Assembly: GCA_036513415.1 (NCBI GenBank)
Contig: DATBZA010000033.1
Span: forward strand, 5,344 to 69,343
Direction: 5' to 3'
Origin: Myxococcales bacterium
GTDB taxonomy: Bacteria > Myxococcota > Myxococcia > Myxococcales > 40CM-4-68-19
Length of the DNA: 64,000 nucleotides
Part shown: positions 4,729 to 42,528 of the stretch, piece by piece
How the letters are laid out: every line of letters starts with the position of its first letter
Numbering within the stretch: the stretch's first letter is position 1
Made by a program: the position numbers and the translations under genes
Notes under the pieces: generated by a model
The model's input: the letters and a program-made list of their open reading frames with translations, nothing else
Database searches by the model: none
Told to the model about the DNA's origin: nothing

Positions 4729-5985
4729 TCAGGAGAATGCCGCTGCCGCGGCCGCGCGCCGCGCGAAGAACTGCTCCTCCGCCGCGCTTCGCGCCAGCCG
4801 CTGCGCCTCCTGGAAGCGCTCAGCGGCTTTCTCGCGCTCGCCGAGGCGCGAATGGAGCTCCCCGAAAGCAGCCGCGTAGAAGGGGTACGCAGCCAGCTTG
4901 TCCCGCTGCGCGATCGCCTCGAGCTCTTCCAGCCCCCGGCGCGCCCCGAACGCCATCCCGAAGGCGATCGCGCGGCTCAGCGCCACGACCGGCGAGGGTC
5001 GCAGCGCGAAGAGCGATTCGTACAGGCGCGCGACCTGCGCCCAGTCGGTCTCCTCTACGCTCCTGGCCCGGCAATGAAGCGCCGCGATCGCCGCTTCGAA
5101 ATGGAACGCGCTCGGCACCTCGCCCGCTGCGGCGCGCCCGAGAAACCCGAGCCCCTGCTCGATCAGCTCCCTGTCCCAGCGCGAGCGGTCCTGCTCGCCG
5201 AGCGGTACGAGCTCGCCTCCCTCGATGCGCGTCTCGATCCTCGCCGCGTGAAAACACATCAGCGCGATCAGTGCGTAGCTCTTCGGCGTCGCCGCCGCCG
5301 GCAGCTCGACGAGCCGCAGCGCGAGCCGCAGAGCCTCGTAGCAGAGCTCTTTGCGCACCACCGTGTTGGGATGCGCGCCGTGGTAGCCCTCGTTGAAGAG
5401 CAGATGCAGCGCGTCGTGCACGGTATCGAGCCGAGCCAGAACCTCGCCGGCCGAGCGTATGTCGAACAGCACGCCGCGCCGTGCGAGCGACTCCCGCGCG
5501 CGGACCAGCCGCTTCTCGATCGCCGCCTCCGAGGCGAGAAATGCCTGCGCGATCTCCCCGATGCCGAAACCGCACGGATACCGCAGGATGATCGCGAGCT
5601 GCGAGTCCGGGCTCAGGGCGGGATCGCAGCAGGAGAACATGAGCCGCAGATCGTCGTCCTCGATCGCGTGCTCGTCGAAGAGCGCATCGATGGCCGGCAG
5701 GAGCGTCCACTCGGATTGAAGCTCGGGAGCGACGCGCCCCTGGAGCGCCCCGCGCCGCACCAGGTCGATGGCGCGGTTCTTCGCCGCGCGCATCAGCCAG
5801 GCAGGCGGGTTGTCTGGCACCCGCCCGTACTTCCACGCCTCGAGCGCGGTGCAGAGGACGTCCTGCACCGCGTCCTCGGCCAGCGCGAGGTTCTGCGTCC
5901 CCAGCGCGCGGACCAGCGCCGCGACCATCCTGCCCGCTTCACGCCGGAAGAGGTGGTCGACGAGCTGTGGAGCGGATTCGCTCAC
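4729..5985 (-). CDS. ECF sigma factor with C-terminal TPR extension (ECF42-like)
   Basis: LAEDAVQD...WLMRAAKNRAID, DDDLRLMFSCCDPAL, LLFNEGY, DRSRWDRELI, PSPVVALSRA; GTG overlaps the yciI stop. Confidence 0.9.
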   Translation of the reverse strand: MSESAPQLVDHLFRREAGRMVAALVRALGTQNLALAEDAVQDVLCTALEAWKYGRVPDNPPAWLMRAAKNRAIDLVRRGALQGRVAPELQSEWTLLPAIDALFDEHAIEDDDLRLMFSCCDPALSPDSQLAIILRYPCGFGIGEIAQAFLASEAAIEKRLVRARESLARRGVLFDIRSAGEVLARLDTVHDALHLLFNEGYHGAHPNTVVRKELCYEALRLALRLVELPAAATPKSYALIALMCFHAARIETRIEGGELVPLGEQDRSRWDRELIEQGLGFLGRAAAGEVPSAFHFEAAIAALHCRARSVEETDWAQVARLYESLFALRPSPVVALSRAIAFGMAFGARRGLEELEAIAQRDKLAAYPFYAAAFGELHSRLGEREKAAERFQEAQRLARSAAEEQFFARRAAAAAAFS

Positions 5986-8554: not shown

Positions 8555-8615
8555 TAGACCGATGAGTCCATTTCGCACCGGCGGCATCCCAAGCCATACT
8601 AGACCGCATGGTCTA
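8555..8615. promoter_or_regulatory. two TetR (NemR-type) operators upstream of SDR
   Basis: TAGACC-GCAT-GGTCTA at 8600-8615 and degenerate TAGACC-GATG-AGTCCA at 8555-8570. Confidence 0.7.
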
Positions 8616-8633
8616 CAATGACAGGAGTGTCAC

Positions 8634-9383
8634 ATGGGTAAGCTGTCGGGCAAGGTGGCAGTTATTACGGGTGGAACGACGGGGATCGGGCTGGCTACGG
8701 CGCGGCTTTTCGCCGCAGAGGGCGCGAAGGTGATCGTTACCGGGCGCAACCCGGACACCGTGGCTGCGGCACGCAAGGAGCTGTCGCGGGTGGCAGAGGT
8801 GGTGCAGTCGGATGCGGGCGACTCCGCACAGGTGCGCAAGCTCTTCGAGGATATCGGCCGCGCGCATGGAAGGATTGACGTCCTCTTCCTCAACGCGGGG
8901 ATCGCGAAGTTCGCTCCTCTCGCCGACTCGGAAGAGGAACTCTTCGACCATACTATCCAGGTCAACTTGAAAGGGCCATTCCTGGCGCTCCGGGCGGCAC
9001 TACCGCTCCTGGGCAAGGGAGCGTCGGTGATCGTGAACACATCCGTCGTGTCGGAGCGAGCCTTTGCGGGCGCGGCCGTCTATTCGGCGAGCAAAGCCGG
9101 GTTGGCCGCCCTCGCCAGGGGCGCCGCGATTGAGCTGGCGGCGCGGGGCGTGCGCGTCAATGTCGTGAGGCCTGGGCCGATCACCACCCCGATCCTCGAG
9201 AAGATGGGTCTGTCGGCCGAGGCGCGCGATGCCTTCGTGCAGGGCGCAACCGAGCGCATCCCGCTGGGACGAATCGGTGCCGCCGTCGATGTCGCGCAGG
9301 CCGCGCTCTTCCTGGCCAGCGACGACGCCGCGTTCGTCACCGGGCACGAGCTGTCGGTGGATGGCGGCTTGCTCGCCGCCTGA
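8634..9383 (+). CDS. SDR family oxidoreductase
   Basis: TGGTTGIG, NAGI, YSASK. Confidence 0.95.
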   Translation: MGKLSGKVAVITGGTTGIGLATARLFAAEGAKVIVTGRNPDTVAAARKELSRVAEVVQSDAGDSAQVRKLFEDIGRAHGRIDVLFLNAGIAKFAPLADSEEELFDHTIQVNLKGPFLALRAALPLLGKGASVIVNTSVVSERAFAGAAVYSASKAGLAALARGAAIELAARGVRVNVVRPGPITTPILEKMGLSAEARDAFVQGATERIPLGRIGAAVDVAQAALFLASDDAAFVTGHELSVDGGLLAA

Positions 9384-36141: not shown

Positions 36142-37029
36142 GTGGAGCCGAAGGACACGCGGATCACTGCCGTCGCCGGCATCCGTGACCCCGGGGGTGG
36201 GGAGGACCCGTGCGTCGTCCAGATCTACGGTCCACAACTGGGCAAGAAGGTGACGCTCCAGGCGGCCGAGATCGCCATCGGCCGCGGCGATGGGTGCGAA
36301 ATCGTCCTCGACCTGGACAACGTTTCGCGCCGCCACTGCACGCTCGTCAAACGCGACCTCGGTTTCTTCTTGCGGGACGACGACTCCACCAACGGTACCT
36401 ACCTGAACAACGCCCAGGTGCGCGGGGAGATGCCCCTTCGCAGCGGGGATCTCGTCAAGGTCGGTTCGGCCATCTTCAAGTTCCTCCATGGCGGCGAGCT
36501 CGGATCGATCGAGGCGCAGTATCACGAGGAGATCTACCGGCTCACCATCATCGACGGTCTTACACAGGCCTACAACAAGCGCTATCTGCTCGAGCTCCTC
36601 GAAAGAGAGATGGCGCGCTGCACCCGGCACGGCCGCGCGCTCTCGCTGGTCCTGATCGACATCGACCACTTCAAGAAGATCAACGACGGCTTCGGGCACA
36701 TCGCCGGGGACCACGTCTTGCGCGAGATGGCGGCGACGATGAAGACGTGCATCCGCCGCGAGGACTGCCTCGCGCGCTATGGCGGTGAGGAGTTCGTCCT
36801 CGTCCTGCCCGAGACCGGGAGCGAGAACGCCGTCTTCCTCGCCGACAAGCTGCGCAGGCTCGTCGAGCAGCACGAGTTCGTGTTCGAGGGGAAGCGCATC
36901 CCGGTCACGTACAGCGCGGGCGTCGCGAGCTTGCAGAATGCGCACGATTCCGCACCCGCCTTCCTCAAAGTTGCCGACCACAAGCTCTACGAGGCCAAGC
37001 GGCGGGGTCGCAACCAGGTCGTCGCCTAG
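36142..37029 (+). CDS. FHA-GGDEF diguanylate cyclase
   Basis: FHA IGRG, VSRRH, STNGT; GGEEF active site with RxxD I-site (RRED). Confidence 0.93.
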   Translation: MEPKDTRITAVAGIRDPGGGEDPCVVQIYGPQLGKKVTLQAAEIAIGRGDGCEIVLDLDNVSRRHCTLVKRDLGFFLRDDDSTNGTYLNNAQVRGEMPLRSGDLVKVGSAIFKFLHGGELGSIEAQYHEEIYRLTIIDGLTQAYNKRYLLELLEREMARCTRHGRALSLVLIDIDHFKKINDGFGHIAGDHVLREMAATMKTCIRREDCLARYGGEEFVLVLPETGSENAVFLADKLRRLVEQHEFVFEGKRIPVTYSAGVASLQNAHDSAPAFLKVADHKLYEAKRRGRNQVVA

Positions 37030-37273: not shown

Positions 37274-40200
37274 ATGGAGCTCGGGGGTACCGCGAAGCAG
37301 CCGAGCAGGTGCGGTCTCTCGGCCGTGCTGATCAGCACGATTCTCGTCGGCTGCGCCGCGGCGCCCGACGCCAATGTGGACGGTACCGCCCACCGGGCCT
37401 GGTCGCCGCCGCAGCGCCCGCGCCTGACGCTCCCGGCACAGCCCGGCAAAGGCCTGGCAATCAAGGTCGTGTGCCAATCGCAGGTGAGCGGCTCCTGCAG
37501 GGTGTCGACCAATGTCGATGCGTCGCACACGCAAGGGCAGTTGCTCAATGCGGCGGACGCCCTCAAAGCGGTCAATGCGCCTCAGCCCGGCCTACCGCCC
37601 GCGACCGCGCAGGTCTTCTCCTGGGTCTTCGATCGGCCGGTGGACTGGACCGACCTCGAGCAGCCCACGTTGGGAGTCTTCGACACCAACCTCGACAGCG
37701 CGCAGCTTTTCGGCGGCGAGATGGCGAATATGGCCTGGACGTTCTCCGGCTACCTGGCCATCCCGGCGGCGGGCACCAAGTCCTTCGCTGTGGGTTCCCA
37801 GGACGGTTATCTCCTCGCGCTGAATAACGGCACCACGTCCTCGATCAGCCAATACAACGGCAATCGCAGCTTCGCCTATGGCGACACCCTGGGCCTGCCG
37901 CTCACGGTGAGCTTCCCTTCGGCGGGCCTCTACCCGATCTTCCTGCTCGTCTGGAACGACGCCGGTCCCCAGGGGGTCGAGCTGGCCTGGCATGACGGCA
38001 ACGCGCTCATCCTGATTCCGGACGCCAGCACCAAGAACGCGAACGGGTACGCCCTGGTCCCGGCCAGCAGCCTTTACGCCCCGGACATCCGCGCTACCCT
38101 GTTCGTCGACGATCAGACCCGCCCTGCCGGGCCGGTGCTATCCGGCGACACGCTGCAGTGGACGTCGACCGTGCGCAATCAGGGTGTGGTGCCCGCGGCC
38201 GGCGCAAGCTTCAGCGTGGCGACGCCCAAGGCGACCCTGCAAAACCTGACGCTGATCGGCGACGGCGGCACCTGCGCCAGCTCGGCCGACGCAAGCGTGG
38301 ACACGCTGAGCTGCTCGTTGCCTGCCCTCGACCCGGGGGCGGCACAGACGCTGCGCTTCTCCGCCCAGGTGAAGACCGGCCTTGCCGGGGGGACGCCCAT
38401 CGACGTTCAGGGCGTGGTGACGGGTCTCGCGACTGACCCCGCCCTGATCGGTTCCGTGCAAACCGCGCTGAGCGTGGCGGTGAACAACCCCTCCGACCTG
38501 TTCGTGCTCACCGACGACGTCGGCCTGAACGGCTTTGCGACGCTGGACACCGGCAACGCTCCCGTCCTGGCGCTGGGAGCGCCGGGCGCCGCCGACGACG
38601 ATCCGGCGCGCGTGGTGATCGGCGTCGCGCTGCGCCTGCCGGCGACGCCCAGCATCAGCTCGCCCGCGGAAGGGGCCGAGATAGAGGGCCCGCTCCTCGT
38701 GGCTGGGAGCGCCGATCCCGCCTCCACCATCAGTGTCACCATCGACGGCGCCTTCATTGTCCAAACCATGGCGGGGATCGACGGCGCCTTCGCCCTCTCC
38801 ATGCCGCTGTCGGCCGCTGCGGGCAACCACGCGGTTGGGGTGACCGCCTCGGATACCGCGGGCAACCTCAGCTCAACGGCTACGGCGAACTTCCAGTATG
38901 TGGTTGGCGGGCGGGCACGCGGGGGTTGTGCCACCGGCAGCGGCACCGGTCCGCTGTGCCTGCTCCTGTTGGGGCTCTGCGCTGCGCGCAGGCGCCGATC
39001 GTTCGCGGCGCCGCTGGCTGGAGCGGCGTTGATGCTGACCGTGAACGCCGCGAGCGCCGCTGCGCCCGAGGTGAACCTGAGCCTGTTTCGCCCTGCGACC
39101 GGAGGCGACGGCTATGCGGGTGTCGAGGGTGCGCGGCCGCTCGAGTCGGGCGAGCCTCTCGAGGTGCGCTTCTGGCTGGACGGCGCCACGAAAACGCTGC
39201 TGTACCTGCCCGGCGCGGGCGGTGAGCAGACCGTCCTGCGCAATCGGTTGGGCGGCTGGCTGGTCGCGCAGGCGCACCTGTTGGGACCGCTCTCGCTCGC
39301 CGTCCAGATACCCGTGACGCTGAACCAGAGCGGCGACCTCACCAACCTGCCCCCTTCTTCGCGCGGACCCTCCAGCACGCCGGCAGGGCTGAGCGATCTC
39401 CGCCTGACCCCACGGCTCTCGCTTCTCCGCCAGGAGCGGGCCGGCATCGACCTGGCCGCCCAGTTGTCGCTGGAGGTGCCAACGGCGCGAGCCCAGTCGT
39501 TTACCGGCGACGGCCGCGTCGACGGCGAGGCACTGCTGGCGCTGGGGCGCCGCTGGGACGGTCCGGGCCTGTCTGCGATCGAGCTGCTCGGCAATGCGTA
39601 CGCGCGGTTGCGTCCACCGCGCCAGGTGATCGAGGTGAAGACCGGGAACCAGGCCGGCGCGCGCCTGGGGGCGGGCTTCTTCCCCGGGCTGCGGAGCCAG
39701 CTCGTCCCCCATCGCGTGTTCGCCGAGATCGAAGCTCAGACCTTCTTGCGCGCGGGCGGCGCCGCGGGATCAACTCCGGCCGAGTGGCGCGGCGGCGTGG
39801 GCTTTTGCATCGGGCGAGCGGTCGCCTTCGACCTGGCCGCGGGCGGCGCCATCGGCAACGGGATCGGCGCGCCGGTGGCACGCGTCATTACCGCCGTGGG
39901 CTTTTCGCCCCAGAGCTGCGGCGGTGGGGCTCCCCTGTCCGTGGTCGACCGGGACGGCGACGGCATTGCCGACGCCGACGACATCTGCCCCGATCAGCCA
40001 GGGCCGAGGGAGAACAAGGGCTGCCCCCTCGTGGTTGCACGGGAGCAGCCCGCCGGTCCTCCTGCCCCTGCCGTCGCGCCGGCGCCCCCCGAACCGGCGA
40101 AGCTGGCCGAGGCTCCCAAGCCACCCGAGTCGGACCGGGATCACGACGGCGTGCCGGACAAGGAGGATTCTTGCCCCGATCTTCCCGGGACGGCGGCGAA

Positions 40201-40621
40201 TTACGGATGCCCGGTGACGATCAAGCAACTGGTAGTGATCCGAAACGAGCGGATCGAGATCCTCGACAGGATCTATTTCAAGACCGGCAAGGCGATGCTC
40301 GAACGGCGCTCGTTCCCGCTGCTCGATCAGGTCGCGTTCCTGCTCAAAGGCCACGCCGAGTTGCTGACGGTCCAGGTCGAGGGCCATACCGACAACGTCG
40401 GCAGGGCCGCGACGAATCTCGCGCTGTCGCAAGCGCGCGCGAATGCGGTGGTCACGTACCTGGCCAAGACTGGCGTGGATCCGTCGCGGCTGCGCGCCCG
40501 CGGCTTCGGCTCCAACAAGCCCGTCGCGGACAACGCCGCCAGAGCCGGCCGGGAGAGGAATCGGCGCGTCGAGTTCAACGTGATCGGTGTCTCACAGGAG
40601 CCGGCTCGGCCGGGCACCTGA
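37274..40621 (+). CDS. large outer-membrane/surface protein: PA14-like + DUF11-like + Ig-like + internal MYXO-CTERM + beta-barrel + TSP3 + OmpA (TraA/TraB-like fusion)
   Basis: FSGYLAIP..F.VGSQDG; GDTLQWTSTVRNQG; GGCATGSG-TM-RRRR (38921-38998); two DxDxDG..D..D.CP repeats; IYFKTG...VEGHTD...LSQARA...NRRVEF. Confidence 0.85.
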   Translation: MELGGTAKQPSRCGLSAVLISTILVGCAAAPDANVDGTAHRAWSPPQRPRLTLPAQPGKGLAIKVVCQSQVSGSCRVSTNVDASHTQGQLLNAADALKAVNAPQPGLPPATAQVFSWVFDRPVDWTDLEQPTLGVFDTNLDSAQLFGGEMANMAWTFSGYLAIPAAGTKSFAVGSQDGYLLALNNGTTSSISQYNGNRSFAYGDTLGLPLTVSFPSAGLYPIFLLVWNDAGPQGVELAWHDGNALILIPDASTKNANGYALVPASSLYAPDIRATLFVDDQTRPAGPVLSGDTLQWTSTVRNQGVVPAAGASFSVATPKATLQNLTLIGDGGTCASSADASVDTLSCSLPALDPGAAQTLRFSAQVKTGLAGGTPIDVQGVVTGLATDPALIGSVQTALSVAVNNPSDLFVLTDDVGLNGFATLDTGNAPVLALGAPGAADDDPARVVIGVALRLPATPSISSPAEGAEIEGPLLVAGSADPASTISVTIDGAFIVQTMAGIDGAFALSMPLSAAAGNHAVGVTASDTAGNLSSTATANFQYVVGGRARGGCATGSGTGPLCLLLLGLCAARRRRSFAAPLAGAALMLTVNAASAAAPEVNLSLFRPATGGDGYAGVEGARPLESGEPLEVRFWLDGATKTLLYLPGAGGEQTVLRNRLGGWLVAQAHLLGPLSLAVQIPVTLNQSGDLTNLPPSSRGPSSTPAGLSDLRLTPRLSLLRQERAGIDLAAQLSLEVPTARAQSFTGDGRVDGEALLALGRRWDGPGLSAIELLGNAYARLRPPRQVIEVKTGNQAGARLGAGFFPGLRSQLVPHRVFAEIEAQTFLRAGGAAGSTPAEWRGGVGFCIGRAVAFDLAAGGAIGNGIGAPVARVITAVGFSPQSCGGGAPLSVVDRDGDGIADADDICPDQPGPRENKGCPLVVAREQPAGPPAPAVAPAPPEPAKLAEAPKPPESDRDHDGVPDKEDSCPDLPGTAANYGCPVTIKQLVVIRNERIEILDRIYFKTGKAMLERRSFPLLDQVAFLLKGHAELLTVQVEGHTDNVGRAATNLALSQARANAVVTYLAKTGVDPSRLRARGFGSNKPVADNAARAGRERNRRVEFNVIGVSQEPARPGT

Positions 40622-40638: not shown

Positions 40639-42528
40639 ATGGGCGAACCGATCGATCCAGGCTATCTGGTGCCGGGGACCAGGATCGGGTTCTACCGGAT
40701 CGTCTCCAGGGTCGCCGCCGGCGGCTTCGGCGTCCTCTACCGCGTCGAGCGGGACGGCCAGAACTATGCGCTCAAGATCGCCACCCACAGGCGGGACGAG
40801 ATCACGCCGGACCAGCTCCGAAATCAGGAGGAGCGCGCCGACCGCGAGCTGGTGGCGCTCAAGTCGCTGGACCATCCCAATATCGTCCGGGTGCACGCTT
40901 TCGAGAGATGGCCGAGCCTGCGGGACGGCTATCCGTTCTTGATCATGGACTTCGTCGAGGGTGACCGGCTCAACGCCTGGGCAGCCAAGGAGCGCCCATC
41001 GCTCGTGACCATCTGCCAGGTCTTCCGCAAGATTGCCCTCGCCCTGCACGAGATGCACCGGATCGACATCTACCATCGCGATTTGAAATCCGACAACTTG
41101 CTGGTCCGGCGCGACGGAGAACCGATCATCGTCGACTTCGGCATCGCCCGGCCGCTGCAGGCCCGCACCGTCACGCGGGACCACACGTTCGTGGGCACCT
41201 CGACGCACCTGCCGCCCGAGTACTGCCAATTCTTCAGCAGCGAGGCGTGCCAACACGGAGAACGCTTCCACTTCACGCCGCAAGGGGACCTGCACGCCGT
41301 GGGCTTCATGCTGTACGAGCTGCTGGCAGGCCGGCCGCCCTTTCCTCCGGCCGAGGATGACGTGGCGATGATGCTGACGATCATCCGCTGCGTGCCCCTC
41401 CCTGCGGCGGAGGTGAACCCGCGAGTGCCCCGCTCACTCGATGCCATCGCCGCGCGGCTCCTGGAAAAGGAGCCTGGGCGCCGGTACGCCGACGGGCAGC
41501 AGCTGGCCGACGCCCTGGAGCTGGCGCTCGCGCAGTCCGATCCGTCGTGGACCCAGCCCCACGCGGTCCCTCCGCCGCCAGGGCGGGATCGGCCCACGCG
41601 CGGCGACCGCTCGGGCGGCGCCCGGGCGCTGCCGTCGCGAGCCCGCGATGCCGGCTTCGCACCTTTGGTCTCTACCGGCGCAGCCACGCTCGAGTCGCGC
41701 TTGGTCAACGCGATCGCCGAAACCATGAGAGAGACGGGCGCGGACATCAAACCGCCGCATTCGGCCACCGCCCTCAGCGTCGAGATCGTGCGGCGCGTCG
41801 AAGTCCCTACACGTGCTGCGCAGGAACGGCTGCCACCACGCGCCAAGCGCTCGATCATGATCGTGGGCGGCGCGTGCGCGTTGCTCGCGCTCTCGACTGT
41901 GATCCGCGCGTCACCCGGTGTTCGCTTCGGGCGTTGGCCCGGCGCTTTGCCGCCGGCCGCGCTACAGGCGGCGCCGCTGCCGCCGGCTCCTGAGCAAGAG
42001 CTGCTTCGGTCCCGCGCTACCGATCTGGAATTGCCAACTCCGTCGACGTCGCTGAGCTCCACAACGCCGGCGGCCGTGCGAGTCCGAGAGGCCGGGAACC
42101 GCACCCACGTCGCGAATCCCGACTTCGGGATTAGCTCCGCAGCGTCAGCGGCCACCGAGGTCACCGAAGGGCACTCGCTCGGAGTTCCCGCAGGCGCCGA
42201 GTTGGCTGTGAGATTGCTGAGCAGCCTCGACGACCATGCCCTGGCCGGAGCTTCGGTGGAGGCCCTGCTGATCCGCCGGGTGAAGGGTCACAAGCGCCGT
42301 TCGCTCCCCGCAGGAACCATCCTCTACGGGGTGGCGACCCAGAACGGTGGGCGCTTCGTTCTGCGTTTCAAGCGCGCCAAGCTGCCTGACGAGACGCAAT
42401 TCGAGATCGACGGTCTCGCCTACGACGCGAGCGGCACGCACGGAATTGCTCCGACCAGGCTGAAAGCGGGTATCGCCGTGCTCGCCGCCGGCGAAGAATT
42501 CGTCGTGCTGATCCCGCAGGGTTTCTAA
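40639..42528 (+). CDS. Ser/Thr protein kinase with TM and C-terminal TrbI/VirB10-like domain
   Basis: GGFG, ALK, HRDLKSDN, DFG, PPE; TM IMIVGGACALLAL; VPAGAEL..LPAGTILYG..GLAYD..G..GI. Confidence 0.85.
   Translation: MGEPIDPGYLVPGTRIGFYRIVSRVAAGGFGVLYRVERDGQNYALKIATHRRDEITPDQLRNQEERADRELVALKSLDHPNIVRVHAFERWPSLRDGYPFLIMDFVEGDRLNAWAAKERPSLVTICQVFRKIALALHEMHRIDIYHRDLKSDNLLVRRDGEPIIVDFGIARPLQARTVTRDHTFVGTSTHLPPEYCQFFSSEACQHGERFHFTPQGDLHAVGFMLYELLAGRPPFPPAEDDVAMMLTIIRCVPLPAAEVNPRVPRSLDAIAARLLEKEPGRRYADGQQLADALELALAQSDPSWTQPHAVPPPPGRDRPTRGDRSGGARALPSRARDAGFAPLVSTGAATLESRLVNAIAETMRETGADIKPPHSATALSVEIVRRVEVPTRAAQERLPPRAKRSIMIVGGACALLALSTVIRASPGVRFGRWPGALPPAALQAAPLPPAPEQELLRSRATDLELPTPSTSLSSTTPAAVRVREAGNRTHVANPDFGISSAASAATEVTEGHSLGVPAGAELAVRLLSSLDDHALAGASVEALLIRRVKGHKRRSLPAGTILYGVATQNGGRFVLRFKRAKLPDETQFEIDGLAYDASGTHGIAPTRLKAGIAVLAAGEEFVVLIPQGF

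Follow-up and report, generated by a model that had tools for sequence, protein, structure and literature searches.

A sorting tag of the MYXO-CTERM type is a C-terminal signal, and the question raised by the gene described here is whether such a tag can work in the middle of a protein, with a second signal peptide and a predicted outer-membrane barrel following it in the same frame. The gene lies on contig DATBZA010000033.1 of the Myxococcales assembly GCA_036513415.1, in a window of 64,000 nucleotides (positions 5,344 to 69,343), by which we mean the whole stretch of DNA that was analysed. A first-pass annotation had interpreted the gene as encoding a polyprotein that is processed into a surface receptor and its outer-membrane anchor, and as a variant of the TraA/TraB pair of myxobacterial kin recognition in which Ig-type domains replace the Cys-rich stalk. 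Our analysis favors, with a probability of roughly 70%, a reading in which the single frame encodes a likely surface adhesin together with a TraB-like outer-membrane anchor, predicted to be cut in two as proposed for MXAN_5598 of Myxococcus xanthus and acting as a general adhesin. The claim of a new recognition system is weak, and what is new here is a one-Ig variant of a fused design that is already published and widespread.

One continuous frame with a conserved joint

The frame is open on the + strand from either of its two candidate starts (Table 1), and every motif named in the first-pass annotation was found in its place: ILVGC at residues 23-27, SQDG at residues 175-178 and GGC...RRRR at residues 550-575. 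A scan with Pfam models recovered Big_6 at residues 475-538 above its cut-off (29.5 against 27.6 bits), OmpA at residues 1001-1097, DUF11 at residues 287-370 (22.5 bits) and two stretches of TSP_3 (20.5 bits) below theirs (24.6 and 25 bits, respectively), and a weak PA14 match (E 0.03). The best NCBIfam match of the whole protein is TraB (NF033763), with 164.8 bits where the cut-off is 700, and the barrel region alone matches positions 19-296 of that model; together with Pfam, this match bears out the predicted order of a TraB-like barrel, TSP3 repeats and an OmpA domain.

A fusion of this kind might be an assembly error or a strain-specific frameshift that joined two overlapping genes: traA and traB overlap in all cases examined in PMC6372800, by four bases as described in PMC3325183, so that one indel could join such genes, and the present genome is an assembly of 192 contigs. 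However, neither a stop nor a frameshift is seen at the junction. Single contigs of runs X2, X4 and X6, which belong to three studies and do not include the possible source run, span positions 38921-39070 with 0 differences and 0 gaps, and none of the 13 substitutions examined from runs X2, X4, X6 and X9 creates a stop. The frame is also retained in the syntenic orthologue L093 (~90% nucleotide identity) and in P0002, P0003 and P0004, with junction identities of 52-90%, and the whole protein recurs as a protein cluster in the homologue search. An artefactual origin is thereby refuted. Because dN/dS is 0.31 against L093, the junction is under purifying selection. The joint itself, in which GGC, helix, Arg cluster, second signal and barrel follow one another, is retained in all 34 of the 34 best homologues (31 by pattern and 3 by eye), most of which carry an Ig-repeat passenger without a PA14 tip. 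The conserved joint agrees with the polyprotein layout of the first-pass annotation, and the processing is a prediction from that layout.

Two genes could nevertheless be read from the continuous frame if the barrel half were translated from an internal start. An in-frame TTG at 38969, six codons ahead of RRRR, would yield a complete signal peptide, and one relative (G024) has a separate ATG for the barrel, accompanied by a Shine-Dalgarno-like motif, within the open frame. At the present gene, however, no Shine-Dalgarno-like motif was seen upstream of the TTG, and no conserved internal start position was seen across 33 fused loci; an internal start preceded by a Shine-Dalgarno-like motif occurs in 3 of these 33 loci, not including the present gene, compared with 12 of 24 rows classed as free. 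Moreover, translation of the upstream product would run on in the absence of a stop, and we consider a pair of overlapping genes very improbable. The G024 locus (L010:8572-9637, contig C9) has a further peculiarity, a 355-codon insert between tag and second signal that leaves the frame open and carries a likely opposite-strand gene (8599-9132, GC3 0.93); this locus is possibly a fission in progress.

Table 1. Parts of the fused gene (positions in the window) and two TraA-TraB fusions of another genus (positions in their own loci)
Feature	Position	Strand	Evidence
Whole gene	37274..40621	+	1115 aa counted from ATG; frame open from TTG 37262
Predicted lipoprotein signal peptide with the lipobox L-V-G-C (Cys27) at its end	37274..37354	+	lipobox pattern
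Fast-evolving linker from lipid Cys to tip	37355..37423	+	identity and dN/dS in close relatives
PA14-fold tip, residues 51-271, QD at 176-177 for the usual DD	37424..38086	+	alignments and structure model
DUF11-like Ig domain	38087..38428	+	Pfam PF01345 E 1.5e-4, below cut-off
Conserved acidic segment (LTDD / DTGN / DDD motifs), common to the tip family	38429..38638	+	alignments
Single bacterial Ig stalk unit (Big_6)	38639..38908	+	Pfam
MYXO-CTERM-like tag inside the chain: GGC (Cys552), a short hydrophobic helix and RRRR	38921..38998	+	position and custom profile
Internal (second) signal peptide containing AxA sites; signal peptidase I predicted to cut near residue 595	38999..39061	+	
Predicted outer-membrane beta-barrel, TraB-like superfamily, family-specific clade	39065..39913	+	NF033763 E 3e-11; tree; atlas
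Two TSP3 calcium-binding repeats flanking a Pro/Ala-rich linker	39950..40216	+	Pfam, below cut-off
OmpA-like peptidoglycan-binding domain	40274..40564	+	PF00691 E 3e-21
TraA-TraB fusion, start cut by contig end (G339:C18)	L164:1-3207		TraB 731 bits
TraA-TraB fusion, 1243-aa frame (G418:C564)	L175:1347-5075		TraB 762 vs 700; TraA 740-745 vs 750; TIGR04566 317 vs 80

The passenger half has several features of its own. Residues 1-50 show 30-67% identity in close relatives and a dN/dS of ~1.1 against L093, and the linker that follows Cys27 might serve as a flexible tether or as a site of release. In 13 of 14 proteins of the tip family, a lipobox-like Cys, as judged by pattern, lies 19-38 residues ahead of the tip, and an N-terminal Cys is present in 27 of 28 Ig-repeat paralogues. 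A likely role of the acidic segment is to complete DUF11 or to bind calcium. The stalk is estimated to contain one Ig unit here and ~7-20 in relatives, a variation reminiscent of adhesins whose reach depends on how many repeats they have. The one-Ig stalk, the conserved N-terminal lipid Cys beside the internal one and the change from DD to QD at the calcium site are distinctive of the present gene. A single-sequence AlphaFold model of the whole protein was discarded (pLDDT 33), and a sequence match to a designed propeller in the PDB (7awy) was dismissed as a summed repeat artefact.

Internal tag and predicted processing

A Cys, a hydrophobic helix and an Arg cluster are all present in the tag, and in pattern and position it corresponds to the MYXO-CTERM sorting tag reported earlier. 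Its score does not: the curated models TIGR03901 and TIGR03382 gave no match to it at E<=1 or E<=5, and the GlyGly-CTERM model gave 14.5 against a cut-off of 15.5. A profile of 52 other fused junctions matched the tag at 16.4 bits (E 0.013) and ranked it seventh among the 38,775 open reading frames of the genome, after six tag-bearing proteins. The distance from the Cys to the Arg cluster downstream is 19-26 residues in 33 fused loci, where an AxA-type site is also seen ahead of the barrel. In the present protein the candidate AxA cuts fall after residue 592, 594, 595 or 596, and the second signal region aligns with the signal region of free barrels. As for the machinery, the genome has one full-length match to an MrtX-like protein (myxosortase) and two matches above cut-off to GspD, the type II secretion (T2SS) secretin, and MrtX-like genes are present in 30 of 34 genomes of the family.

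Starting from the frame, the domain order, the conserved joint, the PA14 fold, the MrtX-like gene and the T2SS secretins, and following known pathways for the remaining steps, we propose the following model. The N-terminal half would be exported by Sec and lipidated at Cys27; the tag helix would then halt transfer, leaving RRRR in the cytoplasm, and the helix of the second signal would resume export. Signal peptidase I would release the barrel-TSP3-OmpA half, which could insert into the outer membrane and grip peptidoglycan. Cys552 would in turn be lipidated and myxosortase would cut behind it, and the T2SS would carry the PA14-DUF11-Ig passenger to the surface, where it would dock on its own barrel, likely at 1:1. 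In support of this model, both halves also exist separately, as a tip protein with a terminal tag (L146) and as free barrels of the same clade. We think it most likely that the passenger binds a surface glycan, a substrate or another cell as a general adhesin rather than serving as a polymorphic self tag.

Several observations weigh against this model. The tag is weak and is missed by the curated models, whereas the internal tag of the paralogue C162 passes TIGR03901; the MrtX-like protein scores 144.8 bits, under the curated cut-off of 180, which only 1 of the 34 family genomes passes; and lipid anchors at both ends of the passenger are absent from the published TraA model, with its type I signal, so that display of the tip would then be unaccounted for. 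In a second reading, the second signal alone is cut: the tag would stay unprocessed, the passenger would remain tethered to the inner membrane or periplasm or be shed through a cut in the linker, and the barrel half would still reach the outer membrane. The short hydrophobic core of the tag, its scores below both curated models, the anchor already supplied by the N-terminal lipobox and the fall of junction identity to 52% in P0003 and P0004 all agree with such an outcome. However, the spacing of GGC, helix and Arg cluster is constant across the family, the C162 tag exceeds the curated cut-off and MrtX-like genes are nearly universal in the family, which makes an unprocessed tag distinctly unlikely.

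Barrel phylogeny and known fused systems

In a tree of 65 barrel rows, the present barrel falls into a clade of 32 rows (100/100), and the rows of known genome in this clade all belong to family f1. The TraB clade (100/100) is separate from it, and so is the clade holding L078, which lies between ftsA and ftsZ and is taken here as the MXAN_5598 orthologue. Approximately unbiased (AU) tests rejected the grouping of four present-family rows with TraB (p 2e-5) and with the L078 group (p 3e-7); they covered 49 of the 65 rows, the groups were named once the first tree had been seen, and the outcome is due mainly to nesting within the family clade. The tree is ambiguous as to where the family f1 clade attaches. 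The idea of a TraA/TraB variant with a replaced Cys-rich stalk is not upheld, since the phylogeny puts the barrel outside the TraB clade and neither half is orthologous to its TraA or TraB counterpart.

The novelty of the fused design does not hold either. MXAN_5598 is described in PMC11980579 (2025) as an adhesin region, an internal MYXO-CTERM, a barrel and an OmpA domain, and is likened there to TraA plus TraB; in the paragraph devoted to it, its processing is proposed without a test, and the protein was detected in vesicle preparations (PMC4158809). The layout is widespread in myxobacteria. The present gene has all the parts required of this architectural class in one frame, with a joint of the same geometry as in L078. 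In contrast to MXAN_5598, its barrel belongs to another clade, its PA14-DUF11-single-Ig passenger is part of a protein of 1115 residues rather than a frame of 2698, and it lies between FHA-GGDEF and Ser/Thr kinase genes, outside the division cluster; with neither the barrel clade nor the ftsA/ftsZ location in common, it does not qualify as an MXAN_5598 orthologue.

Because fused and free forms of the barrel are interleaved in the tree, and TraA-related tips are carried by barrels from three or more clades in addition to TraB itself, passenger-barrel fusion and fission have recurred across Myxococcota. Barrels of the family clade also occur free, each with a signal peptide of its own (G000:C61:38717-39463; L029-L039); these signal peptides are often very short, and no tagged partner is in frame. 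C61 and C135:31652-32452 may belong to a single gene that the assembly broke in two. The present genome has three further internal-tag fusions. One paralogue (C162:25310-28990) has about six Ig repeats, an N-terminal Cys and the tag that passes TIGR03901; in another (C164:3-1874) the passenger, truncated at the contig end, is Cys-rich and the barrel comes from a different clade. The third (C175:6319-8076, L180) is an unrelated second use of an internal tag, in which an MXAN_2561-like MYXO-CTERM protein stands in frame with an MXAN_2562-family barrel (NF045522, NF040596). This pair resembles the present gene as a MYXO-CTERM protein with a partner barrel, fused by a similar joint, and differs from it in its unrelated passenger and barrel family and its lack of an OmpA domain. 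Five genomes of family f2 encode a separate TraB plus frames of 1200-5200 residues that end in a similar barrel; we read nine of these frames and assigned them to the fused class.

A fusion of TraA and TraB themselves was found in genus g139 of family f2, where a joint of the same kind unites orthologous TraA and TraB within a single frame in both genomes (Table 1). The two loci are 81% identical across the junction region, and both come from metagenome assemblies and are known from assembled sequence; no comparably long frame was found among the f2 TraA matches above cut-off. In the literature searched, in which subscription papers were not covered, we found no report of a natural TraA-TraB fusion and none of the present tip family, the sole match being the MXAN_5598 paragraph. 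The natural TraA-TraB fusion is the better test of outer-membrane exchange by a fused form. The present gene, one of the shortest fused members bearing a TraA-related tip in our survey, offers a convenient system for finding out if a C-terminal sorting tag can operate in mid-chain and if a single chain gives rise to both a surface protein and a barrel.

Relation of the PA14 tip to TraA

The N terminus is PA14-like, as had been predicted. An alignment-based model of the tip gave a PA14 fold (pTM 0.80; Foldseek E 8e-8; VIA Z 13.9), which depends in part on TraA, since the alignment held 22 TraA rows and 8 tip rows; with the tip rows alone, 6 of 6 match Pfam PA14 at E<=1, and the atlas agrees. 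The best structure matches are sugar-binding PA14 adhesin domains, among them those of RTX adhesins (PDB 6m8m, 6x95 and 5j6y; Z 13.7-13.9, rmsd 3.1-3.2 over ~160 residues), which, like the yeast Epa/Flo domains, share the fold and its place at the end of an Ig stalk. The tip differs from these domains in sequence (15-18% identity), in having Gln for the first Asp of the calcium pair and in its presumed export route.

The relation to TraA is distant. Along its entire length the tip can be aligned with the variable domain of TraA (hhalign probability 89%, 203 columns, 21% identity), in line with the TraA-like label of the first-pass annotation, and the whole system repeats the TraA/TraB order of PA14 tip, stalk and MYXO-CTERM, then signal, barrel, TSP3 and OmpA, with the tip homologous over its full length and the barrel a remote homologue. 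In PMC3820747 the defining features of TraA are its type I signal and a PA14-like domain that is hypervariable, and the Asp183-Asp184 pair of TraA is named as the likely calcium site in PMC3325183. The present system, in contrast, is one gene with a lipoprotein signal, its Ig/DUF11 stalk (residues 272-545) has 2 Cys compared with more than 70 in the TraA stalk, its scores are far below the TraA and TraB cut-offs, and its calcium-site pair is Gln-Asp. The pair is Glu-Asp in P0003 and P0123 and Asp-Asp in the long relatives; because the short clade has QD or ED at this site, an altered or calcium-independent ligand is suggested.

These relations raise the alternative of TraAB-like self-recognition, in which processed tips would bind allele-specifically between cells and the barrel-OmpA half would anchor them and possibly drive outer-membrane exchange, in a family lacking TraA. 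Besides the end-to-end alignment, the only NCBIfam families matched by tip members are TraA models (2/6 and 1/6, weakly), although TIGR04566 and NF033759 gave no match to the present tip. Among 172 genomes of family f2, 56 have a match to the tip profile, in most cases at the TraA locus; none of nine generic PA14 loci gave one. TraA models found no match in the present genome or 33 other family genomes, in a search whose controls were also silent, and the same TraA model did score the two fusions of genus g139, in which real TraA and TraB are joined through the same joint. TraA is present in 70 of 115 genomes of family f2, which belongs to the same order as the host, and the runs matching the present gene are soil metagenomes; no RNA run was among those listed, a result that carries no weight as to expression.

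Against self-recognition, planctomycete PA14 domains outscore TraA on the tip profile (35-47 versus 13-35 bits), and because of this control the tip is assigned to a wider PA14 subgroup that includes TraA and is not regarded as a TraA orthologue. The candidate of a specific sister relationship with TraA was weakened by the same control; the tip tree has no outgroup, its long branches meet and one row (L093) is mis-cut. Nor did the tip show, in most comparisons, the excess variability expected of a polymorphic recognition system. Its identity is 79-80% compared with 73-80% in neighbouring parts (P0003, P0122) and 71% compared with 61-68% (P0123), its dN/dS is 0.26, and variable columns make up 30-50% of the tip versus 30-70% of the stalk; only in the L093/P0002 pair is the tip less conserved than the barrel (87% versus 95%). 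This is a weak test, with six close sequences, few alleles and metagenome contigs of at least 90% identity only. Furthermore, the barrel is not TraB, the stalk is not Cys-rich, a search of 18 other genomes of the genus found the tip-DUF11 module in 0, and no exchange defect is reported for MXAN_4924 (PMC3325183), a close paralogue of TraA and a much nearer relative of it than the present tip. Self-recognition is thus unlikely, as is its fuller form, a one-gene TraAB counterpart in soil Myxococcales lacking TraA, with calcium-free binding between twin tips, a double lipid anchor and a reach set by 1-20 Ig units. If this form were true, the TraA-TraB fusions of the other genus would make split and fused forms interchangeable versions of one recognition machine.

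The general adhesin that we favor has tip relatives in several settings. The tip-DUF11 module occurs in 4 genomes of two sister genera, where it opens proteins of 2000-3000 residues ending in the same barrel cassette. In family f2, L146:2181-5747 (G278) has the same tip, DUF11 and Ig stalk with an ordinary terminal MYXO-CTERM, and no barrel was seen in the downstream DNA fetched. Fused proteins of 1176-2951 residues in families f27 and f25 and genus g44 (L147-L154) carry TraA-related PA14 tips on acidic or Ig stalks with barrels of other clades, and planctomycete assemblies and two metagenome contigs encode large proteins that end in PEP-CTERM and carry PA14 domains of the tip subgroup in tandem (L096, L097, L104, L106).

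Genomic context

The genome of the host, an uncultured soil myxobacterium (5.29 Mb, 68% GC, 94% complete), has a GltG-like match of 347 bits against a cut-off of 650 and only fragments of GltJ among gliding genes. No sigma-70 promoter or terminator was found upstream of the fused gene. An FHA-GGDEF diguanylate cyclase gene lies upstream on the same strand (36142-37029), and control of the adhesin by cyclic di-GMP is possible. A Ser/Thr kinase gene follows 18 bases downstream, also on the same strand (40639-42528), and this gene order is retained in L093. In five other genomes of the genus, the closest GGDEF homologues have other genes behind them, and the fused gene lies in an accessory region. 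The C-terminal part of the kinase matches TraM of conjugative transposons weakly (E 0.016).

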